The position numbers and the translations under genes were made by a program. Shown one piece after another: positions 15,387 through 43,274 of a DNA stretch of 64,000 nucleotides. The notes beneath the pieces were generated by a model. That model saw only the letters and a list, made by a program, of their open reading frames with translations, did no database searches and was not told where the DNA came from. Every line of letters begins with the position of its first letter. The stretch's first letter is position 1. Source of the DNA: an uncultured Candidatus Saccharibacteria bacterium (GTDB taxonomy: Bacteria > Patescibacteriota > Minisyncoccia > Phycocordibacterales > UBA1006); the NCBI GenBank assembly GCA_964601935.1, contig CAZROP010000001.1, positions 20,127-84,126 of the forward strand, given 5' to 3'.

Positions 15387-15753
15387 ATATCACAAAAGCA
15401 ATCTGTACATAACCGAAAAGTATTCAGGTATTTACTTCTTGAGTACAAAAAAAGCACTCGTGTGTGCTGTTTTTGTCATCTTCCTTCTAAGACAAAGAGT
15501 GTGAGATTTAGCTCACGTGGGCACCTGATCTGACATGGCCACAGCCACGAGATACTTGTTGGTTCCCTATAAAATTGTGTTCTCAAAACTTTGTCTAGTA
15601 GGAAGACTAATTCATTATATCATACTTCTTTTTGCGTCATCAACATTTTGTGACCCTGACGGATTTTTACCCATTAAGGTCCCGAAAAATCCTATCCTCG
15701 TCCACCAGAAACACCCAAAATATACTTATACCTGCAATGCATGCATTATTTTG

Positions 15754-15825
15754 TGCCCCCGGTAGGACTCGAACCTACAACCGTCTCCTTAAGAGGGAGC
15801 TGCTCTACCATTGAGCTACAAGGGC
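15754..15825 (-). tRNA. tRNA-Lys (anticodon CTT)
   Basis: Reverse complement GCCCTTGTAGCTCAATGGTAGAGC...CTCTTAA...GGTTCGAGTCCTACCGGGGGCA is a cloverleaf with anticodon loop CTCTTAA. Confidence 0.8.
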
Positions 15826-15876
15826 AATAGGTAAAAGTATACACAAAAATATCTACAATTCCAGTTCTCAATCACT

Positions 15877-16458
15877 ATGGTACAATCTATCTATATGTTG
15901 GAGTTTTTTGCCGAATATCGATCTGTATTCATTATTGTACATGCTTTCTCTGCAGCAATAGGAATAGGCGCCACTCTGACGACCGATTTTCTATTTTTCC
16001 AGTTCTTGCGTGACTATCGGATTTCACGTATAGAATCGAAGTTATTCAGAACAGTCTCTCGTGCCTTTCCCGTATTTTTGACCATTATTATACTTTCAGG
16101 AGTGGCACTCTATTTATCCGACCCAGCAAAATATATTGAAAGCTCCAAGTTTATGACAAAAATGCTAGCAGTATTCATCATACTGTGGAATGGTGTATTC
16201 CTGCATTATTATGTATCCCCACGACTGCAGCGTCTAGATTTTCGTACTTCCAAATTTGCATCGACAAAGCGCATCGCATTTGCAAGCGGCGCGATATCAA
16301 TGACCTCTTGGATATCATCATATCTATTGGGACTATTATCGAAAATCCCATTTACCATAACAGACGGAATCATACTCTATTTCTGCCTGCTGGGAATCGG
16401 TGTCTGCGGGAGCCAAATCATATATGCACGTACCCAGAAACGAGCGCAGCAGAAATAA
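15877..16458 (+). CDS. Hypothetical membrane protein
   Basis: 193 aa, ~5 TM helices. Confidence 0.35.
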   Translation: MVQSIYMLEFFAEYRSVFIIVHAFSAAIGIGATLTTDFLFFQFLRDYRISRIESKLFRTVSRAFPVFLTIIILSGVALYLSDPAKYIESSKFMTKMLAVFIILWNGVFLHYYVSPRLQRLDFRTSKFASTKRIAFASGAISMTSWISSYLLGLLSKIPFTITDGIILYFCLLGIGVCGSQIIYARTQKRAQQK

Positions 16459-16497
16459 AACTAAATTTTATTTCTAACTAAATATCTTTCATAAAAA

Positions 16498-17502
16498 CTA
16501 AATATTCTGTAATTTTTCCAAAACGCGCTCAACTATTGAATCTCGGTCTAGCCCGTACTCCCGATAGAGTTCTGTCATGGTACCTGACTGGCCAAAACGA
16601 TCTTGGATACCAATACGCAACATAGGAATAGGTCGTGTTTCTGATAGATACTCCGCAATAGCACTACCGAGCCCACCTGCAACCTGGTGCTCCTCGACTG
16701 ATACAATCAATGACGCACGAGATACAACATCATCCAACATTTGGGTATCAATAGGCTTCACGGTGTGCATATTCCATACCTCTACAGAATGACCTGATTC
16801 ATCCAACTGGTGTGCAGCATAGAGAGCCTCTGCCAAAATTGGTCCACAACCAATAAATACGATATGAGGTGATTCGCTGTTGTCGCCTGCATTATCCGAA
16901 GAATAGAGTTGATATGACTTCCCTATTTGAAATGGTGTTTCCAGAGTTGTCATTACCGGGGATTTTTCACGCGCGAGCCGCAAGTAGGCTGGTGTGCGGC
17001 ACAATGATGAATCGGCGAGCGCGATAGTTGCCTTTTTCGCCTCGATTGCATCACACGGCACCACCACAGCCATGTTAGGCAGCACACGCATGAGCGCGAT
17101 GTCCTCTATAGCCTGATGGGTTCCGCCATCAGGACCAACCGACACGCCTGCATGGCTGCCAACAATTATTACTTTTCTATCGTTATAGGCAATCGTGGTT
17201 CTGATTTGCTCCCAGTTACGCCCAGGACTGAACATGGCATAGGACGAACAAAAGGGAATCTTGCCCATAGCTGCCATACCACTGGCAACAGTGACTAGAT
17301 TTTGTTCTGCAACACCAACCTGCACAAATCGCTCTGGAAATTGTTCTGCGAACAGATTCATCTGTGTAGATTCGGTCAAATCTGCACATAGTGCAACTAC
17401 CTGTGTATTTGCCTGACCTACTACCAACAAACCCTCACCGAAACCTTTTCGATTTGCAGTCATTGTGGGTTCTTCTGTAAAAAAAAGTGGATCTAGATTC
17501 AT
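16498..17502 (-). CDS. Transketolase, C-terminal (pyrimidine-binding) subunit
   Basis: Split-transketolase C-terminal section: pyrimidine-binding plus transketolase C-terminal domain, 334 aa. Confidence 0.8.
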   Translation of the reverse strand: MNLDPLFFTEEPTMTANRKGFGEGLLVVGQANTQVVALCADLTESTQMNLFAEQFPERFVQVGVAEQNLVTVASGMAAMGKIPFCSSYAMFSPGRNWEQIRTTIAYNDRKVIIVGSHAGVSVGPDGGTHQAIEDIALMRVLPNMAVVVPCDAIEAKKATIALADSSLCRTPAYLRLAREKSPVMTTLETPFQIGKSYQLYSSDNAGDNSESPHIVFIGCGPILAEALYAAHQLDESGHSVEVWNMHTVKPIDTQMLDDVVSRASLIVSVEEHQVAGGLGSAIAEYLSETRPIPMLRIGIQDRFGQSGTMTELYREYGLDRDSIVERVLEKLQNI

Positions 17503-17516
17503 ATAATATTATCAGA

Positions 17517-18350
17517 CTATGCGAAGAGCTTTTTTAATTCGTTGATCCATGATATTTCCTGTTCTTTGTTGGGTGGTTTGCCATGCCAGTGATAATCCCG
17601 TTCTATTTCTGAAATACCTTTTCCTGCAATAGTGTGTGCAATAATAACGCTTGGTCTATTAGTGATAGTCTTTGCAAGATTCACCGCATTTATAATGGAC
17701 TGAATATTATGCCCATCAATTTCTATTACATGCCAGTTGAAGGCCTCCCACTTTGCGACTAGATTCTCCAATGGCATGACGTCTTCGGTATTACCATCTA
17801 TCTGAATATTATTTCTATCAACAATTACGATCAGGTTACCAATGCGCTCTTTTGCTGCCAACATAATAGCCTCCCAGTTATTCCCTTCGTTTAACTCTCC
17901 ATCCCCCATTAAACAATAGAACCATTTTTTTGTTCGTAGATTATCTATTCGATCTGCCAACGCCATACCGACAGCCTGCGACAGCCCGCTGCCCAGCGGA
18001 CCTGATGAAGTCTCCACACACGACAGAAACTCACGATGTGGGTGACCCTGTAGTCGTGATCCGAATTTCCGCAATGTGCGCAATTCCTCTACTGGAAAGT
18101 AACCCGTGTGTGCCAAGGTTGCGTAATACACCGGACATATATGACCATTAGACAATACAAGTCTATCTCTATCAGCCCAGTCAGGATTATTCGGTTTGTG
18201 ATTCAGTATATTGAAGTACAACGCAGTAAATACATCCGCCATATCGAGTGGCCCCGAAGTGTGCCCACTTCCGGCATCTTCTAACATATCAATGATGCTG
18301 ATTCGGATTTCTTGTGCCTTTATTCGCAGTTCATCAATGGAATAGTTCAT
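17517..18350 (-). CDS. Transketolase, N-terminal (TPP-binding) subunit
   Basis: 'GSGHTSGPL...GHPH...' thiamine-diphosphate-binding motifs; 277 aa; adjacent to the C-terminal subunit. Confidence 0.8.
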   Translation of the reverse strand: MNYSIDELRIKAQEIRISIIDMLEDAGSGHTSGPLDMADVFTALYFNILNHKPNNPDWADRDRLVLSNGHICPVYYATLAHTGYFPVEELRTLRKFGSRLQGHPHREFLSCVETSSGPLGSGLSQAVGMALADRIDNLRTKKWFYCLMGDGELNEGNNWEAIMLAAKERIGNLIVIVDRNNIQIDGNTEDVMPLENLVAKWEAFNWHVIEIDGHNIQSIINAVNLAKTITNRPSVIIAHTIAGKGISEIERDYHWHGKPPNKEQEISWINELKKLFA

Positions 18351-18427
18351 ATAGATAGTATAGCGTATGTGGTCTTAAAAATGAAGAAAATCCAGTACTC
18401 TAGACTGGATTTTCTTTTTGTGACAAG

Positions 18428-21400
18428 TTACTTGGGGCACCCAACCATCACCTTAATCTTAGCGCTCAGTGTAGGGGTATATGCTCCTGTCTCAGCCATA
18501 TTGAACCTCTTCTGCAACAAACGTACATACGCCTTGGACGACCTCCCATACACTCCGTCTATGACTACTTCACCTCTGAGGACATAGGCTATGAATCTCT
18601 GAAGATTAGTGATTGATGTCTTTGAGCTTGAGGACGATATGGTAGTGGCTGGTAATGCTGCACAGGCTTGTGCCAGTACTGCAGGCGGTAGTTTCTGTAT
18701 ATGGCAGAGCATATCAGAATGGAGAGGCAGTGTAGGTTCGGTGTCGAATACATTCGAGAAACCCCGCAGGTCTATTCCTGCTCCTGTGAGTATTGATACA
18801 CCAGGTGTTGTAGCATAGAGATCTCTTTGTGTAGGAGTGAGTTGTGAGTCTATAACCTTGTAGGCAGAGGTACAAGTAGGCAATACTTCTCCTCCTGATG
18901 CATAGGTTGTAGGCTTCTTAGTCTTCTTTGCATTATAGAGCTCTATCAGTTTTGTCATGAATGGATTACTGAGGATATTTGTTTCTACAGGTATATTGTT
19001 CTTCTTATGGAGATCAGTGATTGCTTTGGTTGTTGTTGTGTTTTGTCTTCCTGTGATAGTTGTTTTGTAACCTAGAGTACGAAGCATGGATTGGATGGAT
19101 TTCCAGTCTACTTTTCCGGTGGGGGTGGTGGTTGAGATGGGTGTAGTAGTAATTGCTGGAGGTAAAATTGTTGAGGTTGGTGTCTTTATGCAGCCCGTTG
19201 GAGTGAGGATGTGTGTTGAGGGGCAGCTGGGGGTGGAGGGTCCTCCTCCTCCTGAAGAAACAGAAGGTGCTGGGGTATAGACAATCAAAGCTTTATTTGC
19301 GCTCAAACTACCAGCTACACCAGGCGATGGAAGCAACAAACGTACCGGAGCCGTTTGTGCAGTGGTTGTTATGTTGCCTCCATTCAGATTGAGGGCACCT
19401 ACTGATGCGTAATCGAGATCAGAAGAAGTATCGCTTGGTCCCACAGTATAATTAAACGTTAGTGTATCAGTACCCGATCCCGAAATATAATTAGCCACTG
19501 CATCAGTCGCACCAGTCTCTAGTGTCAACTGCGGTGTTCCTGTGACGGTTACTGATTCACTGAATTGAATCAGAATATTAATGGTACCACCGTTCGTGTA
19601 CGAGCCATCCGAATTACCGGAAGCAACGTTGAGAATGGTAGGGACACTTATATCGAAAATCATAGTGCGATTCGCCGGCTCATCAGATACATAAAGCCTC
19701 TTATTTTGAGAATCTATCATGAGGTCAATAGGGTCTACGATACTGGATTGCGTGACAGCGGTACTATAGTTCAAAAAATTAGGTTGTCCGAGCACATTGA
19801 TAGCTGACTCTCCATTGGTGATATCTGCCACGTCAAATACAAGAACACGGGCAGCCGAGTAATCTGCGACAAACAATCTACTGTACACCTCATCATAGCT
19901 TAGCCCATTCGGCTCGCCACCAAAACCAGCTTGACCTCCGTTAGCGTTTGCTGTAACAAAATCAGGTTGTCCGAGCACATTGATAGCTGACTCTCCATTG
20001 GTGATATCTGCCACGTCAAATACAAGAACACGGGCATTACCACCATCTGAAACAAATAACCTTCGCTGAATAGCGTCATACGTAACCCCTGTAGCTTCGT
20101 CCATCTTACTCTGTGTCGTACCGACAGTGCAGGTAACAAAGTCAGGTTGTCCGAGCACATTGATAGCTGACTCTCCATTGGTGATACCTGCTATATCAAA
20201 AACAACAATACGGCGGTTGCTCCGATCTGAAACAAACAATCTATTTCCCGTCGGATCGAGCGATAAATAGCTAGGATTATTTAATCTTGAAGCTGAACAA
20301 GCACTTGTAATATTGCTGAAATTTGCTTGCCCCAAAACATTTACAGGAGCATCTCCGTTCTCTATAGTGGAAACATTCCATACGAGAACACGCTGCTTGT
20401 CCGCATCTGCCACAAACAGCCTGTTCTGCCCTGAATCATAAACGAGACCTGCAGCATAAGAAAATCCGTAGAACCCCCCCGAGGACGTATCCCAGAAATT
20501 CTGCTGCCCTAATACATAATCAGGTGTTTTGTCTACCAAGATATTTGATGAATTTAAGTTAAATACTAAAATACGAGAACCATCTGCCAAAAAAAGTCTA
20601 TGATTAGTATAATCAATCGCAAGACCTGCAGGCTGACTCAACCCATAAGGATTTATCTGCGTACCGTCGTTACTATCTTGTGTATAATAATCTACTTCTA
20701 GCCCATCATTATAAGTCGACTGCCCTACAGCGTCAATCGCATCTTCTCCATCAGTAATAGCTGTAGTATCAAATATCATTATACGGTTACTGCCAGTGTC
20801 TGATACATAGGTTCGATTATTGGTAGAGTCATAATATACTCCTTCTGGGGAACTAGTAACCCCTGTGTCCGCAAATCCAGATCCTGACTCAAAATCAGGC
20901 TGACCTAAAATATTAACCGCAGGCTCACCATTGGTAATAGTTGCTATATTAAACACTTTTACACCACTGCCCCCGCTCTCTGCAACATACAATCTATTAT
21001 TTGCTGCATCGTGGGCGATCGCATTGGGCTGATTCATGCCATCTTGGGTAATATTGTCACTAGCACTGACAAAATCAGGTTGACCTAGCACATTGATAGC
21101 GTTTTCTCCATCAGTAATAACTGTAGTGTCAAATACGAGAACTCGATGATTTGCGGTATCTGCAACATAGGCACGAGTTCCTGATGTATTGATCCCTATA
21201 CCCTGCGGGGCGAACATCCTGTTCTGTGAGGCGAGAGCTGAGCTTGTTGTAAAATTAGCTTGCCCGAGTACATTAGCTGCAGCCTGGCCATTAACAATAG
21301 AAGTAGTGTTATATATCACAGCACGATTATTACCTGTATCTGCAACGTATAAACGAGCATTGACACTATCGTATGCCAGTCTATACGGAATATTCAGACG

Positions 21401-21979
21401 CCCTGCAGCGAGCGTGCCTGTACCGCTAGTGAAATCTGCCTGCCCTAAAACATTAACAGCGCTCTCGCCATTGGTAATAGATGTAACATCAAATACTAGT
21501 ATTCGGTTATTAGAGGTGTCAGCGACAAACAATCTATTATTACCACTATCATGTGCTATTCCCTGCGGACCCTTCAACATCGTTTGTGTAGTACCCTCTA
21601 CGCGCAAGTAAAAACCCTGTTGACCCAATACAAAATCTGGAGTTTTGTCTACAAGCTGATTCGAGACATTGAGATTGAATACCAGCACCCTATTATTACC
21701 TGAATCAATGACAAACAAACGATGATTGCTGGCATCTAAGGTGGCTTGAGCGGGCCCATTCAATCCGTACGGCGTCATATCACCAGCGCCACCATTCTCG
21801 CTACTGCTAGTATAGCTCACTTCACCCCCCTCACGATTGACATACTGGCCAATAGCATCTATAGCATTCGCGCCATTCACAATAGCAGCATATGAATACA
21901 GCGGTATAGCACTTAGCACGGCTAGTGCAACGAACCCAATATATCGATAGACAGTATTCATGGTAATAGGTGATTTCAT
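18428..21979 (-). CDS. Giant secreted NHL-repeat beta-propeller protein (1183 aa) with C-terminal tandem PG_binding_1-like domains
   Basis: Signal peptide. More than 15 NHL-type repeats ('NNRVLVFD', 'NHRLFVAD', 'ITNGESAINVLGQPDF'). The C-terminal ~250 aa is shared with the 2116-aa protein and carries two peptidoglycan-binding-like repeats (LRTLGYKTTITG...; DGVYGRSSKAYVRLLQ). Confidence 0.7.
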   Translation of the reverse strand: MKSPITMNTVYRYIGFVALAVLSAIPLYSYAAIVNGANAIDAIGQYVNREGGEVSYTSSSENGGAGDMTPYGLNGPAQATLDASNHRLFVIDSGNNRVLVFNLNVSNQLVDKTPDFVLGQQGFYLRVEGTTQTMLKGPQGIAHDSGNNRLFVADTSNNRILVFDVTSITNGESAVNVLGQADFTSGTGTLAAGRLNIPYRLAYDSVNARLYVADTGNNRAVIYNTTSIVNGQAAANVLGQANFTTSSALASQNRMFAPQGIGINTSGTRAYVADTANHRVLVFDTTVITDGENAINVLGQPDFVSASDNITQDGMNQPNAIAHDAANNRLYVAESGGSGVKVFNIATITNGEPAVNILGQPDFESGSGFADTGVTSSPEGVYYDSTNNRTYVSDTGSNRIMIFDTTAITDGEDAIDAVGQSTYNDGLEVDYYTQDSNDGTQINPYGLSQPAGLAIDYTNHRLFLADGSRILVFNLNSSNILVDKTPDYVLGQQNFWDTSSGGFYGFSYAAGLVYDSGQNRLFVADADKQRVLVWNVSTIENGDAPVNVLGQANFSNITSACSASRLNNPSYLSLDPTGNRLFVSDRSNRRIVVFDIAGITNGESAINVLGQPDFVTCTVGTTQSKMDEATGVTYDAIQRRLFVSDGGNARVLVFDVADITNGESAINVLGQPDFVTANANGGQAGFGGEPNGLSYDEVYSRLFVADYSAARVLVFDVADITNGESAINVLGQPNFLNYSTAVTQSSIVDPIDLMIDSQNKRLYVSDEPANRTMIFDISVPTILNVASGNSDGSYTNGGTINILIQFSESVTVTGTPQLTLETGATDAVANYISGSGTDTLTFNYTVGPSDTSSDLDYASVGALNLNGGNITTTAQTAPVRLLLPSPGVAGSLSANKALIVYTPAPSVSSGGGGPSTPSCPSTHILTPTGCIKTPTSTILPPAITTTPISTTTPTGKVDWKSIQSMLRTLGYKTTITGRQNTTTTKAITDLHKKNNIPVETNILSNPFMTKLIELYNAKKTKKPTTYASGGEVLPTCTSAYKVIDSQLTPTQRDLYATTPGVSILTGAGIDLRGFSNVFDTEPTLPLHSDMLCHIQKLPPAVLAQACAALPATTISSSSSKTSITNLQRFIAYVLRGEVVIDGVYGRSSKAYVRLLQKRFNMAETGAYTPTLSAKIKVMVGCPK

Positions 21980-22113
21980 ATTATTATATTAAGCGTAAGT
22001 AGTGAGGATAAACTAAACAGGTTATCGAATAGAGATTCAGTCATGAGGCTCTTCCCAACTCTAGTATACCCACAATCAGAAATACACACAAACGGCATTG
22101 TGTGTACAAGAAA

Positions 22114-22926
22114 TTACTCTGAATGCACGCGCTCCAAGATATGTGGATTCACGATATTTTTGACGTCTGGCCACGGGATCATAATTTCAGGCTGTCCTGC
22201 TGCATAAGGTGCAATTTGGTACGCGCCAAATATAATACGTATTCCTGGATGTTCTAGCATAAAATTAACAAAATTTTCAGACTTGGGTTCGGTACCTGTC
22301 AGTACATAGCTATTGCTAAACATTTCAGGATTTTCTTTTGCCACTGCAGATAGTTCTGCATTAGCAAACGTGCCCGAAGCAATCAGCGCACGCGAAGTAC
22401 GCGACAGAGTGGTCAGATAGTCGGGATGATTAGCGAATACTTCAGACAGCTCTACCTGACGACCATCCTCGTCAAATACGAGGGCAATTACAGCAGGATT
22501 ACCGTGTGCTCCCCCGGTATATTCGTACGCATCAATACGATAGTTGATATATTTCCCTGCACGACTCATTACCGCCCCTTTCCAGTCTGCCTGCCACTTA
22601 TTACCACTCGGCTGTAGTTCTGCGATTGATTCATTTTTGAATTTACTAGAATCATACTCCTGCTCAAATACTACAATTGATTGCTCGACCATCTGACGAA
22701 TCATAGCATCAGCGGTAGTATTACCTGACGTATTCAAATCAGCACTGAGAATATACAGATCTGTCTCCTTGTGAACCTCGAGCACCTTGCCGACAGGACC
22801 ATTATCTGTGACTTCGTTAGGAATACCAAAGAATGGAATATCATTGGTTCGAGACCGCATATACCAATACCCGCCAGCTAGTACTGCCAGAATTACCAGA
22901 ATAATTATAATTCGCCGCGTATTCAT
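22114..22926 (-). CDS. DUF3298/DUF4163 (RsiV-like) domain membrane-anchored protein
   Basis: N-terminal TM helix. 'YEYTGGAHGN' is the hallmark DUF3298 motif. Confidence 0.55.
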   Translation of the reverse strand: MNTRRIIIILVILAVLAGGYWYMRSRTNDIPFFGIPNEVTDNGPVGKVLEVHKETDLYILSADLNTSGNTTADAMIRQMVEQSIVVFEQEYDSSKFKNESIAELQPSGNKWQADWKGAVMSRAGKYINYRIDAYEYTGGAHGNPAVIALVFDEDGRQVELSEVFANHPDYLTTLSRTSRALIASGTFANAELSAVAKENPEMFSNSYVLTGTEPKSENFVNFMLEHPGIRIIFGAYQIAPYAAGQPEIMIPWPDVKNIVNPHILERVHSE

Positions 22927-22957
22927 GTATATAGTCTATCACAAAGATGCAGGGACA

Positions 22958-23653
22958 TTACTGAACCTGACCCTGTAACTGTTCAAAAGAATTTCGTGGA
23001 TTCTCACTCCCAAAAATCGCCGAACCACACACAACTGATGTAGCACCTGCATCTCGCAAAGCGAGAATATTAAACTCTGAAACACCCCCGTCGATCTGTA
23101 TAGGCAATTCCGGATCAAATTGCTGAATTCGTGCTATAACATCGAACACACGAGTAGAGAAAGACTGCCCTTGTACCCCAATACGCTCTATTCCCATTAT
23201 CTGAACGAAGTGTACTCTTTTTAAAAGCTTTTGGTATATCGAAAAATCATCATTCACTGTCACCGCAATACCATATTCAAATTTTGGATAATCCTGTGAA
23301 TACCCGTGCAAAATTGCAAAACAATATGACAAATCTTCTGCACTACCAACATGCAAGACAACTCGACGAGGATTCGCGGACAACCACCTAATCAGTGATT
23401 CCTGTGGATTTTTGATCATTAGATCAAACTCAACGACGATATTTTGTTTGCGTAATATTTCCAGAGCAGCGACACAGTCTGCATCTTCTACAATCTGCCC
23501 CGCAGTATTATACGGCCATGTACTTGATTCTACATACTCCCCATCACAAATATCTATCTGCACCAGTGTAGCAGAGTCTTTGTTGGCGCAGAGCACTGCC
23601 TTGTGCTCTATTTCTTGCCAGTTTGATTCGAGTATTCCTGGGGTAACCTTCAT
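22958..23653 (-). CDS. rpe: Ribulose-phosphate 3-epimerase-like TIM-barrel protein
   Basis: 'MKVTPGIL...' start, 'IDICDG' and C-terminal 'IQIDGGVS...GATSVVCGSAIFG', typical of Rpe. Adjacent to rpiB. Confidence 0.6.
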   Translation of the reverse strand: MKVTPGILESNWQEIEHKAVLCANKDSATLVQIDICDGEYVESSTWPYNTAGQIVEDADCVAALEILRKQNIVVEFDLMIKNPQESLIRWLSANPRRVVLHVGSAEDLSYCFAILHGYSQDYPKFEYGIAVTVNDDFSIYQKLLKRVHFVQIMGIERIGVQGQSFSTRVFDVIARIQQFDPELPIQIDGGVSEFNILALRDAGATSVVCGSAIFGSENPRNSFEQLQGQVQ

Positions 23654-23656
23654 ATC

Positions 23657-24121
23657 TTATGCGTGTACGATTTCAATCATATTAATACGTCTCTGATGCC
23701 TAACTCCATCGAATGGCGTATCTAAGAATAATTGCACGCCAGCCCACAACTGATCTTGTGATACGAATCGCGCACCGACAGATAATACATTGGCGTTGTT
23801 GTGCGCACGACCCAGACGGATTACTTCGACATCCTGGCCATTATAGACAACAGCACGAATTCCAGAATACCTATTCATAACAATAGCCTCGCCAGTACCT
23901 GACCCGCCCAGCACAATAACGCAAAGTTCCAGGAATTCAGTATCACGCGCATAAAGCTGCAATTGCTCTGCTGCTTTATGCATATAGACAGGATAATCAT
24001 CGTCTGACACCAGGGTATACGCGCCGCAGTCTTCTACAGCGTGCCCCTGTCCTAGCAGCCAAACCTTGAGCTGCTCCTTCATTTCAAAACCTGCATGATC
24101 TGCAGCAAGTATAATATTCAT
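23657..24121 (-). CDS. rpiB: Ribose-5-phosphate isomerase B (RpiB/LacAB family)
   Basis: 'MNIILAADHAGFEMKEQL...' is the canonical RpiB N-terminus; 154 aa. Confidence 0.8.
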   Translation of the reverse strand: MNIILAADHAGFEMKEQLKVWLLGQGHAVEDCGAYTLVSDDDYPVYMHKAAEQLQLYARDTEFLELCVIVLGGSGTGEAIVMNRYSGIRAVVYNGQDVEVIRLGRAHNNANVLSVGARFVSQDQLWAGVQLFLDTPFDGVRHQRRINMIEIVHA

Positions 24122-24382
24122 ATATACCTACTATATCAGGGTTTTCAGATATTTCATCATCCAGTGACCTACCAATTAGATTGCTATTTCCAAAAAGGCT
24201 TCCAATAAAAATCATACTGCGTACCGCTGGATGTACACAACGGACCTGGTGAATCTAAATTACATTCAGGATCGACATATACCTGCTCCTGATGAACAAA
24301 TGATGTGATTAAAAAAACTATCAGTGCGACAAAAAATAAAAGTTTGAACATATACTATATTGTACACTATCTCGGTGAAATA

Positions 24383-25414: not shown

Positions 25415-25497
25415 ATACACGAATTATACCATTCAAATGCTCTAAAACAAAAAACACCCTATGGGGTGTTTTTATAGTGTACGGTACAGCAATTATG

Positions 25498-29140: not shown

Positions 29141-29345
29141 ATGGGAGTAGTGTAGCACGCCGTGCAAAGACACAAACCCCACCCTAACCCTCCCCTTTTC
29201 TAGGGGAGGGAACCTGCAGGAACGGCTGCGAGCCGCCCTCCACCACCCCATTCCCCAACCACTTGACACAGCGCAATTAGTCAGTACTATATAACTTCGT
29301 TTTAGAAACAGTTATTTATTAACCTTATTCAAACATCTTTCGCAT

Positions 29346-30793: not shown

Positions 30794-31912
30794 TTGTATA
30801 TGAAAACACCCTACCTAGTATCTCTCATTGTATTACTCGCGACCGGCACCTACGCCCTCGCTCAACTCACCCCACCTCTCCAAACACCTACCTGTAGTCC
30901 TACATCAGCAGGGTGTCAGATAGCACCTCCTATCAATGCAGGAACATATTATCAGGAGAAGAAGTCTAATGTGGTGGTACGTTTGCCTGTTGCATCTTCA
31001 AGTATTCTTCCCTTCTTGGATCCTACATGGAATCCTGTACTACAGAACTATCCTGCAGCGACTCCTTCTCATTTTGGGTTTGATACTAACGGTTATGTAC
31101 GTGGACAGGGTGTGATTGCGAATAAAACGTTGAAGGTTGGAAAGGATTGGGTTATTACAACACCGAATACACCTCCTGTGGGCGAGTTGTTTATTCCTTA
31201 TGCGTCGGAACCGCAAACTAGTACCGTCTCAGAGCGACCTCTCTGTGTAGTCAAGGGTACCGGCCTCATAAAAAGGTGTGTATCTGCAACGACTGTAGCA
31301 GAACCATCAGTTAACGTCACGGCATCTACAACAGCACTGGGTAGTGCTGGAGGTAATGTTACCTACACATGGACATCTACGAATACAGACTCCTGTGGAT
31401 TCATAAATGGCCCATCATATATCAGTTATGTGCCCGGAGGAACACCTAGCAATACATCCGGCAGCGTTGCGATGGCATATCCTGCAAACTCTTCAGGAGC
31501 ACATCGGCAGTACAAATTCGGAGTCTATTGTTACAAGGCTGTAACAGGTGGCGCCAACAAAACAGTTATTGATGACGTAGCACTGACTGTATTCGGCAGC
31601 ACTCCACCACCGCCATTACCTACCGTAACGGTTCTAACTCCTATCGAAAGCCATGATCTTGATAACCCAAATACGCCGTTTACTGTGCAGTATGAAGTAG
31701 CCAATGCAACATCATGTGCATACTCATGGAATACTCGACCTGCTAGCAGTACATTTACTCCTGTTAGTCAAACAACACCGACAAATGGTATCTATTCACT
31801 AACTCTAAACCTATTACCTGCGGGTCCTAGTACTCATTACGGGGTGAACATAACCTGTACCAACAGTACAGGTAGTACCACCCAGTGGTATCGAATTTAC
31901 TACGGAATATAG
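30794..31912 (+). CDS. Secreted Thr/Ser-rich protein, paralog A of a tandem pair
   Basis: Signal peptide MKTPYLVSLIVLLATGTYALA. The first 426 nt are identical to the downstream paralog. Divergent Cys-containing Thr/Ser-rich C-terminal half. Confidence 0.55.
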   Translation: MYMKTPYLVSLIVLLATGTYALAQLTPPLQTPTCSPTSAGCQIAPPINAGTYYQEKKSNVVVRLPVASSSILPFLDPTWNPVLQNYPAATPSHFGFDTNGYVRGQGVIANKTLKVGKDWVITTPNTPPVGELFIPYASEPQTSTVSERPLCVVKGTGLIKRCVSATTVAEPSVNVTASTTALGSAGGNVTYTWTSTNTDSCGFINGPSYISYVPGGTPSNTSGSVAMAYPANSSGAHRQYKFGVYCYKAVTGGANKTVIDDVALTVFGSTPPPPLPTVTVLTPIESHDLDNPNTPFTVQYEVANATSCAYSWNTRPASSTFTPVSQTTPTNGIYSLTLNLLPAGPSTHYGVNITCTNSTGSTTQWYRIYYGI

Positions 31913-32097
31913 TAATGGTGAGTAATCTACTCACTGATTCCTTACAAAACAGCCTCAACTTCTGAGGCTGTTTTGTTTGGTATAGAGAAATCTATTATCA
32001 ATAAAGGTTATTACTGTTTCAGTTACAACTTTATCCACAAACAGAGGAATCCTGGAACAACTATTGAGTAATGGAACACGTTATACTGTATCTACCT

Positions 32098-33315
32098 ATG
32101 AAAACACCCTACCTAGTATCTCTCATTGTATTACTCGCGACCGGCACCTACGCCCTCGCTCAACTCACCCCACCTCTCCAAACACCTACCTGTAGTCCTA
32201 CATCAGCAGGGTGTCAGATAGCACCTCCTATCAATGCAGGAACATATTATCAGGAGAAGAAGTCTAATGTGGTGGTACGTTTGCCTGTTGCATCTTCAAG
32301 TATTCTTCCCTTCTTGGATCCTACATGGAATCCTGTACTACAGAACTATCCTGCAGCGACTCCTTCTCATTTTGGGTTTGATACTAACGGTTATGTACGT
32401 GGACAGGGTGTGATTGCGAATAAAACGTTGAAGGTTGGAAAGGATTGGGTTATTACAACACCGAATACACCTCCTGTGGGCGAGTTGTTTATTCCTTATG
32501 CGTCGGATCATCAGACAAACGCAAAGTCAGAAAAGGTTCTCTGCGTCGCAAAGGGAACGGGTCTAATAAAACAGTGTAGCCCTGCAACAGTCCCAACCCA
32601 GGGAACAACTGCCAGCACACCACTGACTGCAACATTAACAGCATCACAATCAACTGTCACAACGACTGTACCCAGCTCTATTTTGACCTGGACATCAACA
32701 GGCGCTACTGAATGTTATCCGGTGAGTGGATGGGGGTTTGATTTTAATACTCGCGCAATATCAGGGACAGAAACAGTGACTCTTACCAACCCCACATCAC
32801 TGTTCGGCGATAACTCGACATTTATTGTAGCCTGTACGAATGCAGCACAGAACGTGGTCTTTGCCTCTACCAAAATTAATGCTGACCTACGTCCTGTTAT
32901 AGGTACATTCTGTGCAACACCGTATAAAAACCTTGGATCAGGTTGGCAGCCTACAGGGGGATGTACCAAAGTCATAAATGGTGCGTACGACAATAACGAA
33001 TACTTTGTTACTCACCTGAACGTGACCAGCCCTAATGGGTCACCAGTACAATGTAAAGCGCGAACAGTTGCTAGTAATATTGCAGGATCTAACACGTGGA
33101 GCTTCCTCGCAAGTGGTGTGTGGACGACATCAAAGACTGTACCAACAGGGGTAATCGTCAGTGGCGGCACACCTAATGCTTGTCTGAATGGCTGTCAGTA
33201 TGATGAAATTGTCTCTGCTCCTTATACTTCTGCACAACTGCAAGTAGAATGCACCAATACTGCAGGAACATCTGGCGATAGCATCATTCTTACCACAGGA
33301 CTATCTACTGATTAG
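32098..33315 (+). CDS. Secreted Thr/Ser-rich protein, paralog B of a tandem pair
   Basis: Same 142-aa N-terminus as paralog A, then an unrelated C-terminal half. Start placed at the Met that begins the identical block. Confidence 0.55.
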   Translation: MKTPYLVSLIVLLATGTYALAQLTPPLQTPTCSPTSAGCQIAPPINAGTYYQEKKSNVVVRLPVASSSILPFLDPTWNPVLQNYPAATPSHFGFDTNGYVRGQGVIANKTLKVGKDWVITTPNTPPVGELFIPYASDHQTNAKSEKVLCVAKGTGLIKQCSPATVPTQGTTASTPLTATLTASQSTVTTTVPSSILTWTSTGATECYPVSGWGFDFNTRAISGTETVTLTNPTSLFGDNSTFIVACTNAAQNVVFASTKINADLRPVIGTFCATPYKNLGSGWQPTGGCTKVINGAYDNNEYFVTHLNVTSPNGSPVQCKARTVASNIAGSNTWSFLASGVWTTSKTVPTGVIVSGGTPNACLNGCQYDEIVSAPYTSAQLQVECTNTAGTSGDSIILTTGLSTD

Positions 33316-36283: not shown

Positions 36284-36883
36284 ATGTCACTACTCGACTA
36301 CAACGAAATTCGCGAAAAGAAGGTAATTATTTATGACGATGAACCGTGCCTGGTAGTATCATCCCACGTCGCACGCACACAAATGCGCAAGCCGACCAAC
36401 CAAACAAAACTGAAATCGCTCATTTCTGGAAAGGTATTCCAGGCAGTATTCCAGGCAAGCGATCGCGCAGAAGAGGCCGACATTGAAAAACGTGTTTCAA
36501 AGTTTCTCTACGCACAGCCACAGAAAAACGAGTGGTGGTTTGCCACTATCGAGGACACCAAGGATAGATTCAAACTAACAAGAGACGAGATTGGTGAAGC
36601 GGCAAAATGGATTCGTGAAGGATCTGACGTTACCATTAAATTCTTTTTGAAAGATGATGACGAAGAAGTAGTGATTGGAGCAGAAACACCTATAAAGGTA
36701 GAGCTGACAGTAAAGGAAGCGCCCCCTAATGTACGTGGTGACACTGCAACAGGCGGGCGCAAGACCGTTCTACTAGAGAACGGAACCGAGTTATCGGGTG
36801 TACCATTATTTATAGAGGCTGGTGATATTATTCGCATCAACACCGAACTAGGTGAATATGTGGAACGTGTAGAAAAACGATAG
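36284..36883 (+). CDS. efp: Elongation factor P
   Basis: KOW-like N-terminus plus two OB domains; ~190 aa; EF-P conserved pattern (GK..A...T). Confidence 0.75.
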   Translation: MSLLDYNEIREKKVIIYDDEPCLVVSSHVARTQMRKPTNQTKLKSLISGKVFQAVFQASDRAEEADIEKRVSKFLYAQPQKNEWWFATIEDTKDRFKLTRDEIGEAAKWIREGSDVTIKFFLKDDDEEVVIGAETPIKVELTVKEAPPNVRGDTATGGRKTVLLENGTELSGVPLFIEAGDIIRINTELGEYVERVEKR

Positions 36884-36886
36884 TGA

Positions 36887-36923: not shown

Positions 36924-39900
36924 TTATTTGGGGCATTCAGCCAGTGTTTTGAGCTTTGCACCCAACACCGCGGTATATACTCCCGTTTCTGTAAGTCCTA
37001 ATCGGTTTTGTAGCAATCTGATATATGCTTTAGATGACCTCCCATACACTCCGTCTACTACTATTTCTCCTTTCATTACGTACGCTATGAATCTCTGTAA
37101 TGAGGCTACAGATGACTTAGGACTGAGTGAAGATATAGTTGTTAGTGGAAGAGCTGAACAAGCAGTCTCTAATACAACGTCAGGGATACCTGACACATGA
37201 CATTGAATATCACTGTGTAATGGAAGTACGGGGTATGTATCGAACGCACGAGAGAACCCACGCAAATCGATCCCCTTCCCAGTCAAAATGGTAACATTCG
37301 GTAAACTACCATACACAGCTTTCTGGTCAACAGATAACTGTGAATCTATAACCTTGTAGGCAGAGGTACAAGTAGGCAATACTTCTCCTCCTGATGCATA
37401 GGTTGTAGGCTTCTTAGTCTTCTTTGCATTATAGAGCTCTATCAGTTTTGTCATGAATGGATTACTGAGGATATTTGTTTCTACAGGTATATTGTTCTTC
37501 TTATGGAGATCAGTGATTGCTTTGGTTGTTGTTGTGTTTTGTCTTCCTGTGATAGTTGTTTTGTAACCTAGAGTACGAAGCATGGATTGGATGGATTTCC
37601 AGTCTACTTTTCCGGTGGGGGTGGTGGTTGAGATGGGTTGCGTTGAAGAAAGAGTAGGTGTTGGTATATCTGCAGCTTTAGTGACAATCGGAACAGGGAT
37701 GATTGGTATTACTCCACCGCCCCCACCAGAAGAAGACTGTGGTGGAGTAACTATTAGGGGAGAAAACCATCCCGTGGTATTTCCTACGTTAGTGCTGTTG
37801 GCAGGATCTACAGGAGTGGAAAAGACTGATGAATTGTCAGTAATGACACTATCCTTGATCGATAGAAATCCCGAACTTACAAAGGTAGAACTACCAGCCA
37901 TATCTATGGTTGCAGCAGTGTCCGGCATAGAAGAAACTATTGAGAGCCTATCGTTTGCATCTAGACCATTTAGAGTGAGCACTCCTGCTACAGTCTGGGT
38001 ACCACCTGTTGGTAATGTAATGACAGCAGGAGTAGAATTGTTAGAACTATCAGAAAAAGTAAGGTTGTTCCAGGTAGTGGCACCAGTGAGAGCGTGGTCG
38101 TCGCCCGAACTGAATACTACAGTACCGTTGTTATGGTTAAAGGTTCCTGTGTTGGTGAAGGTGCCAGCTATATTAAGAGTGTCTGAAGGGGCGGTGAACG
38201 TTCCTTGGTTAACCATACTACCTGTACCACCACCTGTATTCAGAGTAATTGTCTCTCCCGACGTAAACATAGATCCTGAAGGAATAAAAAATGTACCCGC
38301 CGTTATAAAGACAACTTCGTGAGGTAGAGTGCCCATGAGGCTACTTATGGGTATACTGGGGTCACCACTTTTTGCAAGCACCAGATCTGCGTTGGTCATT
38401 GCTCCATCAGAAATACGTAAAATCTTATCCAGCGCCAGGTGTCCTTCATGGTCGACAAAATCACCACCTACTAACACCTTTCCGCCAGGCTGCACTGCAA
38501 ATGAATACACACTTGCACTAAGCGCTGATGGAATGAACGTAGTATCTCGTGTTCCGTCCGTGTTCAGACGAGTTATTTTATCTAGATTAGATTGACCATT
38601 ATAGTCATTAAAATTTCCACCTACCAGAATCTTTCCATCTGGCTGCAGAGCTAATGTATACACACCTGCCCCAAACCCTGCTGGAACCATGAAACTTGTA
38701 TCTCGTGTTCCGTCCGTGTTCAGACGAGCGATTCTATCCAAATTAGGCTGAGCATCATAATTTTGGAACTCTCCTCCTACAAGTATCTTTCCATCTGGCT
38801 GTATCACAATATTATATACATAATCACTGAGAGCTACCGACGGAACGAATGTTGTATCTCGTGTTCCATCAGCGTTGATACGAGCCAAATAAGCAAGCTC
38901 TGGCAGAGCATCGTAACTCTCGAAGAATCCTCCTACAAGTATCTTTCCATCTGGCTGGATCGCCGCGCTCTGCACGATCTGGCCAAATGCCACCGCAGGA
39001 GCGAACGTTGTATCTCGCGTTCCATCAGTATTCAGACGAGCAATTCCGTCCAGATTGGGCTCCGAATCATAATCTGTAAAACTACCTGCAATTACAATAC
39101 GCTCATCAGCATCTAGATTAATAGAGGATACAGAACCCGTCGAAGCACCGACCGGGATAAAACTAGTGTCACGACTACCGTTCGTATTCAGACGAGCAAT
39201 CCTATCCAGGTTAGCCTGCGCACCATAATCAGTAAAACCACCACCGACCAAAATCTTTCCATCTGACTGTAAAGCCAATGAATTTATACTTGCGTTAAAC
39301 GCGGCAAAAATAGAGAAGCCTGTATCTCGTGTTCCGTCAGCATTAAGACGAGCAATATAGTCCAGATTAGCTTGACCATCGTAGTCGGTGAAATTTCCAC
39401 CTATAACTATCTTCCCATCAGGCTGAACAACTATTGCATTAACAGTATTATTCAATGATGCGGCTGGAGAAAATGCAGGATCGTTAATTCCACCCCTATC
39501 CAATCCCCACACCGTCACCCTATCAGCATAAATATCCAACCCCGTGAGACTGATACCATCTTTTCTAGCCACAGCCACCCCTGCCTCGTCCTCAATATAC
39601 AGAGTAATGATATCGCCATCGTAAAGCTGTACTCCGCTAAATGAATACGCGCCACCACTAGTTACAGCTGTATTTATAGATACACCATTAACAAACAGTT
39701 GCACCGTAATATTATCCGCCACAGGGGTTATGCCATCATTAGCATATACATTTCCCGATATAGTATACCTAGGAGGAAATGCCATATCCAAAACAGAGAT
39801 AAAAGCATCTGTGCCTCCTGCTAATTCTGCCTGATATACTCCTGCAGTCGTAGGAAACGCCGTACCTGTTTGCCCTGTTAGGTATATATTATTGGTAGAA

Positions 39901-42900
39901 TCGAGAGTTATAGCGTAACCAATATCATTATTGGCTGATCCACCCAGGTATGTACTTGCGATCAAGTTTGTAAGATTACTAGGAAATTGTGATATGAAAG
40001 CATCTTGTGTACCACCAATAACAGTATCATATGCTCCAATCGTTGTAGGAAATCCTGTTCCCCCTACTAACCCTGTTACGTATACGTTATTGGTAGAATC
40101 GATATCTATACTATAGCCACTATCTATATTACCTGTGCCACCGAGGAGTGTGCTGGCGGTAAGACTGGCGAGTGTGCTTGGTAGCTTTGAAATAAAGATA
40201 TCTGCTGCACCGCTCAAACTCGTGTCATAAGCACCAACCGTTGTTGGGAACGCTGTTGCTGCTAAACCTGTGACATAAACATTGTTGCTGGAATCCAGGG
40301 CTATGTCGTAGCCAGTATCATTACCTGTACCACCGAGGAGTGTGCTGGCGGTAAGACTGGCGAGTGTGCTTGGTAGCTTTGAAATAAAAGCGTCGCGCGA
40401 TCCACCGATAACAGTATCATATGCTCCAATTGTTACCGGAAAAGTAGATTCTGCCTGACCTGTCACATAAACATTGTTGCTGGAATCCAGGGTTAGGTTA
40501 TACGCGATGTCTGTATTCGTCCCACCGAGAAATGTACTCGCGGTGAGGGTTGCAAGACTACTAGGAAGTATCGATATAAAAGCATCGCTGCCACCTCCCA
40601 CAGTTGTATCATAAGCACCACCCGTTGTCGGGAACGCTGGCCCAGCACCACCTGCCACATAAACATTGTTGCTGGAATCCAGGGCTATACCGTAACCAGT
40701 ATCAATGCCCGTTCCGCCCAGAAAGGTACTAGCTGTCAGGCTAGTTAGCGTGCTCGGAAGTACTGACACAAAAGCATCAGTAGAGGCACCCCCACTAAGC
40801 GCAGTCTGATATGCTCCGACTGTTGTAGGAAAACCTGTTGCTGCAGAGCCTGTGACATAAACATTGTTGCTGGAATCCAGAACTATATCATATCCAATAT
40901 CAGAACCTGCCCCTCCCAAGTAAGTCGCAGCTGCAAGCGTCGTAAGTCCGTTATTGAATTTATAAATCACTACATCCTCAGCACCACCATATGTAGTATC
41001 ATAAGTTCCTGCGCCAGCTGGCGAGTGACTCCTGGATTGACCAACCATATAAATATTACCAGATGTATCGACTGTAATACCGCGACCTATATCATTACCC
41101 GTTGAACCAATTTGATCGCCTCCATACAATGTGCTGGCGGTCAACGCCGTGAGATTGCTGGACAACTTGGAAATAAAAACATCTTGTGATGCGCCTAGCG
41201 TAGTGTCATAAGCACCACCTGTTGTCGGGAACGCTGTTGCAGCTGTACCAGTTATATACACATTATTAGTGGCATCCAATGCTATATCATTCCCAGCTTC
41301 AGTGCTGGTACCACCTAAAACTGTACTCGCAGTCAATGTAGCGAGAGTACTGGGAAATACGGAGACAAAGGCATCCGTACCGCTCACAGTTGTATCATAA
41401 GCACCACCTGTTGTCGGGAACGCTGTTGCAGCATCGCCTACGACGTACACATTGTTACTAGCGTCTAATATAATTCCTCGCCCTATATCAGTACTACTTC
41501 CACCTAGAAATGTACTCGCGGTGAGGGTTGCAAGATTGCTGGGAAGTATCGATATAAATGCATCAGTACCACTAATAGTGGTATCATATGCGCCCACTGT
41601 TGTAGGAAAACCTGTTGCTGCTTGACCTGTAATATATACATTACTACTGGAATCTACTGCAATATCATTACCTGCATCTGCACCAGATCCGCCAAGATAT
41701 GTGCTAGCATTCAGAGTAGTGAGATCGGCAGGTAACGCAGCAACAAATGCATCCAATGAACTACCTCCATACGAAATATCATACGCCCCGACAGTCGTTG
41801 GAAAACTCCCCGACGTACTACCTGTCAGATACAGCATATTTCCTGTACCCCACACCATACTTACTGCCCTATCGTTGCCCGATCCGCCCAGATATGTGCT
41901 AGCATTCAGAGTAGTGAGATCTGGAGAAAATACGGTTATAAAAGCATCTGTGGTCGAACCCCCATGTGTTATCTGGTAACTTCCAGCTGTTACAGGAAAC
42001 CCCGATGCCGCCTCTCCTGCTATATAAATCGCATTATCAGCACCCACCAGTATGCTGGTACTTCCTTCATTACTCGCGGCACCACCTAGAAATGTGCTAG
42101 CAGTTAAGGTAGACAAATCATTAGTGAGTTTCGAAACGAATACATCAACAGTACCACCACCAAAAGTAGGCTGATAGACACCTGCTGTGGTTGGAAATCC
42201 ACTTGCAGCAGTCCCGACTATATAGACATTGCCTGAACTATCCAGTGCAATATCATTGCCTGTATCTGCACCAGACCCTCCTAAAAATGTTTGCCCCTGC
42301 AAGGTCGTCATTGCATCATCGAACTTTAGCACTAGAATATCACCCAAACCATTCGGTGTCGTATCATAGCCTAGACCTGTTATGGTTGGATCGCCTGTTC
42401 TACCTATTATAAAGACAGAATTATTATGCCATACAATACCGTTGCCTGTTTCGAGCTCTGTATACGACTCACCCCCTACATACGTACTCGCCAACAACGG
42501 ATCAATATATAACATATGTGTTGTATCATATTCTCCAACATCGAATCCGTAGGAGTCATTGTTTTGATAAAGTGTGTACTCTACATCTACGGATACTTTT
42601 TCTCCATTGATGTATTGAAAAGCAACAGGTGCGGTCATACGAACACCTCCTGCCCGGGTATTAATTATCAGTTCTCCTGTATCTTCATCGATAGAGAGGT
42701 CTTCTATACCTTCTATTGCAACCTGAATAGTGTCTGGTGATGACTGCGGTGATACGTTGAATATCTTTTCTATATTCTTTTGATAGGCGCGCAGAGTTAC
42801 ACCTATGCCTGGCCATACTAGTGTAAACTCTAAATCTTTATGAGTGTTCAGGTCAGTTTCCCATTTACTAGAATCATCGCCTATGAATCGTGATACTGTT

Positions 42901-43274
42901 GTTTCTGATTTCTGTGCTGGAACCAGATTATTAGTACTACCTCCAACAAACTGTTCGCGAAATGTAGTATCAGGCAACGCATAGGTAATACCCTCTGATC
43001 CAGCATATACTGTTCCAGCACTAGTAACCGCGTAGTACGGATATTGTTGTGCCTCTCCTAGGTTGCCTGAGTTTTCTATCCAAGGCAACTGTACCCGTGC
43101 CATACTTGCCTGTTGATCTGAAGTGAGGGCGGTTTCTGAACTTTCTATATCGGGCACGAGTGCTGCAGTGTTCGCATAGGAAATATTGGGGAGCATGAGT
43201 GTACTGCAGAATATTATGAGAAGGGTGGATGTTGCTATTTTTTTAAAAGATTGAAGGGTTTTTTTTGTTGGCAT
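36924..43274 (-). CDS. Giant secreted surface protein (2116 aa): SBBP beta-propeller repeats plus delta-60 repeats plus C-terminal PG_binding_1-like anchoring module
   Basis: Signal peptide. About 18 'LGGSGxDxGxxIALDSSNNVYVTGxAxxxFPTTxGAYDTT' repeats of the SBBP / beta-propeller type. About 8 'DGKILVGGNFTDYDGQANLDxIARLNxDGTRDTxF' repeats of the delta-60 type. C-terminal 250 aa homologous to the end of the NHL protein. Confidence 0.7.
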   Translation of the reverse strand: MPTKKTLQSFKKIATSTLLIIFCSTLMLPNISYANTAALVPDIESSETALTSDQQASMARVQLPWIENSGNLGEAQQYPYYAVTSAGTVYAGSEGITYALPDTTFREQFVGGSTNNLVPAQKSETTVSRFIGDDSSKWETDLNTHKDLEFTLVWPGIGVTLRAYQKNIEKIFNVSPQSSPDTIQVAIEGIEDLSIDEDTGELIINTRAGGVRMTAPVAFQYINGEKVSVDVEYTLYQNNDSYGFDVGEYDTTHMLYIDPLLASTYVGGESYTELETGNGIVWHNNSVFIIGRTGDPTITGLGYDTTPNGLGDILVLKFDDAMTTLQGQTFLGGSGADTGNDIALDSSGNVYIVGTAASGFPTTAGVYQPTFGGGTVDVFVSKLTNDLSTLTASTFLGGAASNEGSTSILVGADNAIYIAGEAASGFPVTAGSYQITHGGSTTDAFITVFSPDLTTLNASTYLGGSGNDRAVSMVWGTGNMLYLTGSTSGSFPTTVGAYDISYGGSSLDAFVAALPADLTTLNASTYLGGSGADAGNDIAVDSSSNVYITGQAATGFPTTVGAYDTTISGTDAFISILPSNLATLTASTFLGGSSTDIGRGIILDASNNVYVVGDAATAFPTTGGAYDTTVSGTDAFVSVFPSTLATLTASTVLGGTSTEAGNDIALDATNNVYITGTAATAFPTTGGAYDTTLGASQDVFISKLSSNLTALTASTLYGGDQIGSTGNDIGRGITVDTSGNIYMVGQSRSHSPAGAGTYDTTYGGAEDVVIYKFNNGLTTLAAATYLGGAGSDIGYDIVLDSSNNVYVTGSAATGFPTTVGAYQTALSGGASTDAFVSVLPSTLTSLTASTFLGGTGIDTGYGIALDSSNNVYVAGGAGPAFPTTGGAYDTTVGGGSDAFISILPSSLATLTASTFLGGTNTDIAYNLTLDSSNNVYVTGQAESTFPVTIGAYDTVIGGSRDAFISKLPSTLASLTASTLLGGTGNDTGYDIALDSSNNVYVTGLAATAFPTTVGAYDTSLSGAADIFISKLPSTLASLTASTLLGGTGNIDSGYSIDIDSTNNVYVTGLVGGTGFPTTIGAYDTVIGGTQDAFISQFPSNLTNLIASTYLGGSANNDIGYAITLDSTNNIYLTGQTGTAFPTTAGVYQAELAGGTDAFISVLDMAFPPRYTISGNVYANDGITPVADNITVQLFVNGVSINTAVTSGGAYSFSGVQLYDGDIITLYIEDEAGVAVARKDGISLTGLDIYADRVTVWGLDRGGINDPAFSPAASLNNTVNAIVVQPDGKIVIGGNFTDYDGQANLDYIARLNADGTRDTGFSIFAAFNASINSLALQSDGKILVGGGFTDYGAQANLDRIARLNTNGSRDTSFIPVGASTGSVSSINLDADERIVIAGSFTDYDSEPNLDGIARLNTDGTRDTTFAPAVAFGQIVQSAAIQPDGKILVGGFFESYDALPELAYLARINADGTRDTTFVPSVALSDYVYNIVIQPDGKILVGGEFQNYDAQPNLDRIARLNTDGTRDTSFMVPAGFGAGVYTLALQPDGKILVGGNFNDYNGQSNLDKITRLNTDGTRDTTFIPSALSASVYSFAVQPGGKVLVGGDFVDHEGHLALDKILRISDGAMTNADLVLAKSGDPSIPISSLMGTLPHEVVFITAGTFFIPSGSMFTSGETITLNTGGGTGSMVNQGTFTAPSDTLNIAGTFTNTGTFNHNNGTVVFSSGDDHALTGATTWNNLTFSDSSNNSTPAVITLPTGGTQTVAGVLTLNGLDANDRLSIVSSMPDTAATIDMAGSSTFVSSGFLSIKDSVITDNSSVFSTPVDPANSTNVGNTTGWFSPLIVTPPQSSSGGGGGVIPIIPVPIVTKAADIPTPTLSSTQPISTTTPTGKVDWKSIQSMLRTLGYKTTITGRQNTTTTKAITDLHKKNNIPVETNILSNPFMTKLIELYNAKKTKKPTTYASGGEVLPTCTSAYKVIDSQLSVDQKAVYGSLPNVTILTGKGIDLRGFSRAFDTYPVLPLHSDIQCHVSGIPDVVLETACSALPLTTISSLSPKSSVASLQRFIAYVMKGEIVVDGVYGRSSKAYIRLLQNRLGLTETGVYTAVLGAKLKTLAECPK

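Follow-up and report, generated by a model that had tools for sequence, protein, structure and literature searches.

Blades 9, 10 and 11 of a predicted double beta-propeller share short tracts of identical DNA within units that are otherwise as diverged as any two blades of the protein. We consider, with a probability of roughly 0.75, that these tracts arose by short-tract intragenic gene conversion or template switching between old blades, and not by a recent gain of blades. The gene lies in the window, by which we mean the whole 64-kb stretch of DNA that was analysed. The evidence comes from the extent of the tracts, from codon use inside and outside them, and from the behaviour of blades across the protein family.

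The NHL-repeat gene and its predicted product

The gene (18428..21979, minus strand) encodes a protein of 1183 amino acids, delimited by its open reading frame and identical to a protein recorded in NCBI. Its description in an earlier note as an NHL-repeat gene was confirmed: the Pfam NHL family (PF01436) matched with 135.3 bits against a cut-off of 20 (E = 1.9e-40), related six-bladed propeller families also matched, and sequence matches were found to the solved NHL domains of SOQ1 (1.4e-08), NHLRC2 (8.3e-08), Thin (2.2e-06) and TRIM71 (about 9e-04). An AlphaFold2 model built on 42 family members predicts 12 four-stranded blades arranged as two sets of six, with pLDDT values mostly above 90 over residues 70-780.

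From the N-terminus onwards, a signal peptide is followed by the two propellers, an Ig-like domain, a Pro/Thr/Ser linker that is disordered, and helical domains of the peptidoglycan-binding type (all coordinates in this paragraph refer to the minus strand). The putative signal peptide or membrane helix (21887..21979, approximately residues 1-31) was assigned from the sequence and coincides with a hydrophobic helix at residues 6-22 of the model. Propeller 1 (20642..21763, residues 73-446) comprises blades 1-6, as delimited by the six four-stranded units of the model and by blade alignment, and propeller 2 (19619..20641, residues 447-787) comprises blades 7-12 of the model. Blade 7 resembles blade 1 (54% amino-acid identity; the corresponding DNA repeat, D5, has a spacing of 1116 nt), and the two propellers therefore descend from an old duplication of a whole propeller. 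The Ig-like beta-sandwich (19445..19618, approximately residues 788-845) is a feature of the model, with strands at residues 798-844 and pLDDT values of 66-84; it gave no Pfam hit. The C-terminal anchor module (18428..19142) contains PG_binding_1 and shows gapless homology to the C-terminus of a second propeller gene in the window (36924-37638), which encodes 2116 amino acids. Just 3' of the stop codon, a consensus scan marked a terminator-like hairpin of 13 pairs followed by a T-rich tail (18384..18416).

The N-terminal hydrophobic helix suggests that the protein is exported, and in combination with the PG_binding_1 domains it makes exposure at the surface probable, in line with what the earlier note had proposed. 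The gene product is probably a secreted, peptidoglycan-anchored protein that displays two six-bladed NHL beta-propellers. A Foldseek search of the PDB returned only generic tandem propellers (LRP4/LRP6 and WD40 pairs), which gave no lead on function. The neighbouring genes have housekeeping roles and encode a split transketolase, ribulose-phosphate epimerase, RpiB, GAPDH and a UvrD/PD-(D/E)XK helicase-nuclease.

Extent of the identical tracts

The longest exact run, of 73 nt, is shared by blade 10 (19964..20036, minus strand) and blade 11 (19781..19853, minus strand). It covers strand C, the C-D loop and strand D, and encodes the peptide ARVLVFDVADITNGESAINVLGQP at residues 649-672 and again at residues 710-733. 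The copy in blade 9 (20142..20186, minus strand) is shorter: it is exact over 45 nt with blade 10 (19962-20006 = 20142-20186) and over 43 nt with blade 11 (19781-19823 = 20144-20186), corresponds to part of the C-D loop and strand D, and encodes ITNGESAINVLGQP, which is all that blade 9 shares with both other blades. Beyond position 20186 the blade 9 copy shows 9 mismatches within the next 33 nt. When the 73-nt pattern was used as a query, matches were found at 19963-20035 with 0 mismatches and at 19780-19852 with 1 mismatch, but there was no third copy at up to 3 mismatches; none of 100 shuffled sequences contained a match. The earlier note had described a core of 75 bp that recurs exactly three times. 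One exact pair of 73 nt is indeed present, whereas the third copy is exact over only 43-45 nt and then diverges. The blades are likewise not identical at the protein level, as had been assumed, but read RRIVVFDIAGITNGESAINVLGQPDFVT (blade 9), ARVLVFDVADITNGESAINVLGQPDFVT (blade 10) and ARVLVFDVADITNGESAINVLGQPNFLN (blade 11).

The tracts are spaced by 180, 183 and 363 nt, all multiples of 3, so that the reading frame would be kept after a deletion or duplication; the period of 180-183 bp given earlier is correct. The description of the region as perfect tandem repeats, in contrast, did not hold. Whole blades 9-11 are 62-68% identical in nucleotide sequence, or 59-68% when taken as repeat units, and 53-58% identical in amino acids. 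Outside the tract the 180/183-nt units are only 44-46% identical, no more than any pair of blades shows as background. Owing to this divergence, Tandem Repeats Finder, run with a low threshold over positions 15000-26000, reported no array in the NHL gene and only a 9-nt repeat elsewhere.

The tracts are far beyond chance. In the 52 other blade pairs the longest exact run is 16 nt, and permutation of mismatch positions gave maxima of 32, 21 and 22 nt, against the observed 73, 45 and 43 nt.

Three further observations concern the same region. A search against Rfam found nothing in the repeat and, within the window, tRNAs only. Two open reading frames in alternative frames run across the repeat (19900..20178 on the minus strand and 19565..19807 on the plus strand) and were treated as by-products of the repetition. 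The region was also considered as a target of a diversity-generating retroelement and rejected as such, the nine differences between copies B and C (T/C, C/T, C/T, G/A, T/A, G/C, C/T, G/C and C/G) not being adenine-specific on either strand.

Probable copying between old blades

The columns of the alignment that contain the tract are the best-conserved part of the blade: in ordinary blade pairs their nucleotide identity is 56% (maximum 70%), compared with 44% elsewhere. Across the family, too, no part of the blade is better conserved than this motif, and exact internal peptide repeats on it are common, with a median longest repeat of 18.5 amino acids in the best 120 matches and 24 amino acids in the protein described here. 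Such conservation is what purifying selection on the peptide would produce, and together with codon bias it might yield identical DNA without any copying. However, the codons of the tract are identical at 24/24 sites, whereas the background frequency of same-codon use at sites with identical amino acids is 0.44. The probability of 24 identical codons by chance is approximately 0.44^24, roughly 3e-9, and it falls to 1.7e-11 when all 30 same-codon sites of the pair 10/11 are considered. Moreover, the codons differ in blades 2 and 4, although the peptide there is the same or almost the same; blade 2 specifies ITNGESA-NVLGQ with other codons, including AGC instead of TCA for serine, i.e. a codon from the other serine family. 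Selection at the protein level alone is therefore insufficient, and we regard this explanation as extremely unlikely.

Another possibility is that whole blades were duplicated in tandem, recently and twice, and then diverged rapidly except in the core. The blades concerned are adjacent, single-blade amplification is well documented in propellers (PMC9218822), and one homologue (L004) contains a true duplication of a whole unit, with 254 nt exact and a period of 186. In the gene described here, however, similarity outside the tract is at background for both amino acids and synonymous sites, whereas there are zero substitutions within it. Amino-acid identity outside the tract is 0.39-0.41 for the pairs 9/10 and 9/11 compared with a background of 0.38, and same-codon use in blades 9-11 is 0.47-0.55 compared with 0.44. 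The slightly raised value of the pair 10/11 (6/11) may be a trace of an earlier event that was longer. A stretch with 0 differences in 73 nt beside a divergence of about 55% fits no plausible rate heterogeneity and makes a recent whole-blade duplication untenable.

The number of blades also speaks against it, as it equals the norm of the family. Proteins most often have 11-12 blade motifs of the VLGQ type, in agreement with two propellers of six blades each, and all of the eleven blade anchors tested align nearly without gaps across the family; 12 blades (2 x 6) are therefore the family architecture and not the result of an expansion. Altogether, a double whole-blade duplication is very unlikely. 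The earlier suggestion of a very recent repeat expansion was thus correct in one respect, since the identical DNA shows recent exchange between adjacent blades, but there is no sign of the expansion itself: 43-73 of 180-183 nt are identical, the rest is at background and the blade number is normal.

Short-tract copying between old blades remains as the preferred explanation. Since the end points of the tracts differ between the pairs, at least two events are needed. We propose at least two short, non-reciprocal copying events between the neighbouring blades 9, 10 and 11, each of which would have replaced 43-73 nt that code for the conserved framework, namely strand C, the C-D loop and strand D, without touching the remaining blade. 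Copying would have fallen on the best-conserved part of the blade, where similarity may be sufficient for pairing and where replacement would be harmless. The candidate pathway is gene conversion or template switching in post-replication gaps. In Escherichia coli, direct repeats of less than 200 bp that lie within a few kb of each other are substrates of RecA-independent deletion and expansion and of template switching (PMC7145654). The mosaic of the three blades, the identity at synonymous sites, the fold and the pattern across the family come directly from the analysis; we infer the pathway, the number and direction of the events, and their neutrality.

The tracts might also have been generated during assembly or polishing, if the assembler had collapsed or homogenised similar repeats. 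The sequence is probably a metagenome-assembled contig, and the exact protein has a single NCBI entry (P0001, on a 377-kb contig). A few real differences can be lost through bubble-popping or through polishing with multi-mapped reads, and the exact identity could have been slightly inflated in this way. On the other hand, the background identity of the tract columns (56%) is too low for merging by an assembler, the tracts are in frame and have end points that differ by pair, comparable tracts occur in six independent assemblies (NCBI and JGI), and the contig passes unbroken through repeats of 294 and 411 nt. It is therefore very improbable that the tracts as such are an artefact.

Exact tracts between blades in relatives

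The next best relatives are at most 48% identical to the protein, and their names refer to Pacebacteria, Peribacteria, Parcubacteria, Yanofskybacteria and Elusimicrobia. Judged by these names, the organism is probably a bacterium of the Patescibacteria/CPR type. At the DNA level we analysed six homologue genes, partly picked for having peptide repeats and to that extent a biased selection, and found in-frame exact tracts between blades in 6/6, with lengths of 31-254 nt and mostly on the same motif. The flanks of these tracts, measured in 5/6 homologues, are 54-74% identical.

Compared across 42 family members, two internal blades of one protein resemble each other more (0.549) than internal blades of two different proteins do (0.485), and a shared position makes the latter no more similar (0.490; Mann-Whitney p = 3e-90). 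Positional orthology across homologues gave a signal for blades 1 and 6 and was ambiguous for blade 7, while internal blades match any blade. The greater likeness within than between proteins, together with internal blades that have no positional signal, is the signature of concerted evolution. The protein described here has a value of 0.441 and is the fourth least homogenised of the 42 members.

Closer relatives were sought by several routes. A look-up of contigs carrying the exact protein found no orthologue or strain variant, protein-guided scans of species-representative genomes and of metagenomes found no relative, and searches for the exact 42-mer of the shared core gave 0 matches in genomes and 0 in metagenomes. 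A protein search with blades 8-12 alone, aimed at fragments and variants, returned nothing above 53% identity, a weak result because this search missed the identical full-length protein itself.

Exact repeats in other genes of the window

Exact direct repeats with a length of 20 nt or more number 21 in the 64-kb window, and they are confined to four genes, each coding for a secreted or probably secreted protein; three of the 21 are the tracts of blades 9-11. The gene for the 2116-residue SBBP/DUF5122 propeller protein (36924..43274), which ends in PG_binding_1, contains 15 internal exact tracts of 23-59 nt. Its anchor module is linked to that of the NHL gene by an exact tract of 294 nt (18849-19142 = 37345-37638) and by another of 22 nt. 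The two modules align without gaps from their stop codons; the last 420 nt are 50-80% identical, the 294 nt are 100% identical, and then the homology ends. Two adjacent paralogues (30794..31912 and 32071..33315) share an exact stretch of 411 nt that begins at the start codon, the remainder of these genes being diverged. Judged from sequence, exchange between paralogous modules looks general for the secreted-protein genes of this genome. That long exact repeats are confined to such genes suggests a part for recombination between paralogous modules in shaping the organism's surface proteins.

The earlier note had interpreted the repeats as a hotspot of copy-number change, and the idea is physically reasonable for a pair of 73-nt repeats that lie 183 nt apart in frame. 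In its stronger form, the gene would be a contingency or antigenic-variation locus, in which in-frame direct repeats exist or persist to change the number of blades or to make hybrid blades. Several observations agree with such a role: the repeats of 43-73 nt are in frame at all three spacings and of a size that deletes and expands without RecA in E. coli (PMC7145654), exposure of the product at the surface is probable, the exact tracts of the window are confined to genes of secreted or probably secreted proteins, and variants of Helicobacter pylori cagY arise by in-frame recombination between repeats (PMC2194252). However, an array of full identical units is absent, and homogenisation has affected the conserved framework instead of the variable parts, the D-A linkers and loops. 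If a blade were lost, the second propeller would be left with five and the six-fold form that is conserved in the family would be broken, and the gene is among the least internally repetitive of its 42 relatives. A variation locus is therefore unlikely.

A related and bolder proposal is that copying of short tracts between blades and between modules serves as an active diversification system for the cell-surface proteins of this bacterium, which has a small genome and probably belongs to the CPR, and in which the framework tracts would be recombination anchors that allow variable loops, whole blades and anchor modules to be shuffled within and between genes. If true, this system would be akin to antigenic variation by segmental gene conversion and would create population-level variants of proteins in contact with the host; we consider it improbable. 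Ordinary concerted evolution of a repeat family, with short-tract copying as its local expression, is probably sufficient, and a dedicated variation device is not probable.

Comparison with known systems

With its sequence family and its predicted six four-stranded blades per propeller, the protein resembles the six-bladed NHL propellers (PF01436) of SOQ1, NHLRC2, Thin and TRIM71. A typical NHL blade has about 40-45 amino acids. The blades described here differ in having about 60 amino acids and a long D-A linker, and the protein differs from the known NHL propellers in its tandem propellers, bacterial signal peptide and peptidoglycan-binding anchor.

The repeats of H. pylori cagY are also found in a surface-exposed protein and are also direct repeats spaced so as to keep the frame on recombination. 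cagY, however, contains very many direct repeats and has documented in-frame rearranged variants (PMC2194252), whereas the gene described here contains three short tracts, and its fold constrains the number of units.

The recently amplified, 'locally repetitive' beta-propellers (Pereira and Lupas 2022, PMC9218822) likewise contain a few consecutive blades that are unusually similar in DNA. In those propellers whole blades are from more than 60% to 100% identical, which was read as amplification; here the amino-acid identity is 53-58% and exact identity is confined to the tract of 43-73 nt. With flanks at background, blades 9-11 do not belong among recently amplified propellers. Near-identical blades are usually taken as fresh amplification (PMC9218822), but exchange below the level of the blade can create local identity at a constant number of blades, which matters when amplification is dated from the similarity of repeats.

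The closest likeness is to concerted evolution by short-tract conversion or template switching (PMC7145654), with which the gene shares the mosaic of exact tracts in diverged repeats, the identity at synonymous sites and the greater similarity within than between proteins. It differs from general concerted evolution in that the exchange took place below the structural unit, over about 40% of a blade, and in that it concerns an uncharacterised family of cell-wall-anchored double NHL propellers. The gene adds a further case to an established process, the concerted evolution of repeats within and between genes by way of short conversion tracts. The identical DNA in it marks routine exchange among old blades, and neither new blades nor a demonstrated variation switch.

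Exact sequence common to two anchored propeller genes

An exact repeat of 294 nt (window 18849-19142 and 37345-37638) links the C-terminal anchor modules of two genes located 18.5 kb apart: the NHL gene and a gene for a 2116-aa protein (window 36924-43274, minus strand), in which a DUF7948 domain, propeller repeats of the SBBP and DUF5122 types and, at the C-terminus, a PG_binding_1 domain were identified. Starting at the stop codons, the alignment of the two modules is free of gaps: the final 420 nt of the genes show 50-80% identity, the adjoining stretch is 100% identical, and homology then ends abruptly. Judged from this pattern, the 294-nt tract looks like the outcome of gene conversion between the genes or of module exchange. 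Within 64 kb, PG_binding_1 is found at the end of three large proteins (window 47-2086, 18428-21979 and 36924-43274). The protein of window 47-2086 also contains a bacterial surface Ig-like domain, and its anchor showed no similarity to the module common to the other two.

The 2116-aa gene is converged upon by the EF-P gene (36284..36883), and a perfect palindrome between them (window 36879-36901) is probably a bidirectional terminator.

Adjacent paralogues with an identical 5' part

Two neighbouring plus-strand ORFs of 372 and 414 aa share 411 nt that are exactly identical (window 30799-31209 and 32097-32507), starting from the ATG and corresponding to 137 codons. Their N-termini resemble signal peptides, and neither ORF had a match in Pfam. 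On the 3' side of the identical stretch the identity drops to ~60% and later to background, and the regions upstream of the two ORFs are unlike each other.

Genes around the NHL gene

Genes of core carbon metabolism flank the NHL gene on both sides (window 16498-18350 and 22958-25420), all on the minus strand, and encode transketolase (as separate N- and C-terminal subunits), ribulose-phosphate 3-epimerase, RpiB and GAPDH. Located 4 kb from the NHL gene is a minus-strand gene for a UvrD-type helicase of 1042 aa (window 26141-29269), which carries a C-terminal PD-(D/E)XK nuclease domain and is AddA/PcrA-like by domain content; given this predicted product, the organism has genes for at least part of a recombination or repair apparatus.

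Comparison of repeat patterns

The 2116-aa gene contains 15 internal exact tracts of 23-59 nt, spaced mostly by ~190 nt or multiples thereof, and displays patchy homogenisation of the same kind as the NHL gene. In P0101, a homologue of the NHL protein from another assembly, the gene (locus L004) contains an exact repeat of 254 nt with a period of 186 nt (gene coordinates 595-1034), so that the exact duplication extends beyond a single full blade. This is a genuine recent duplication of a whole blade, unlike what is observed in the NHL gene of the window.
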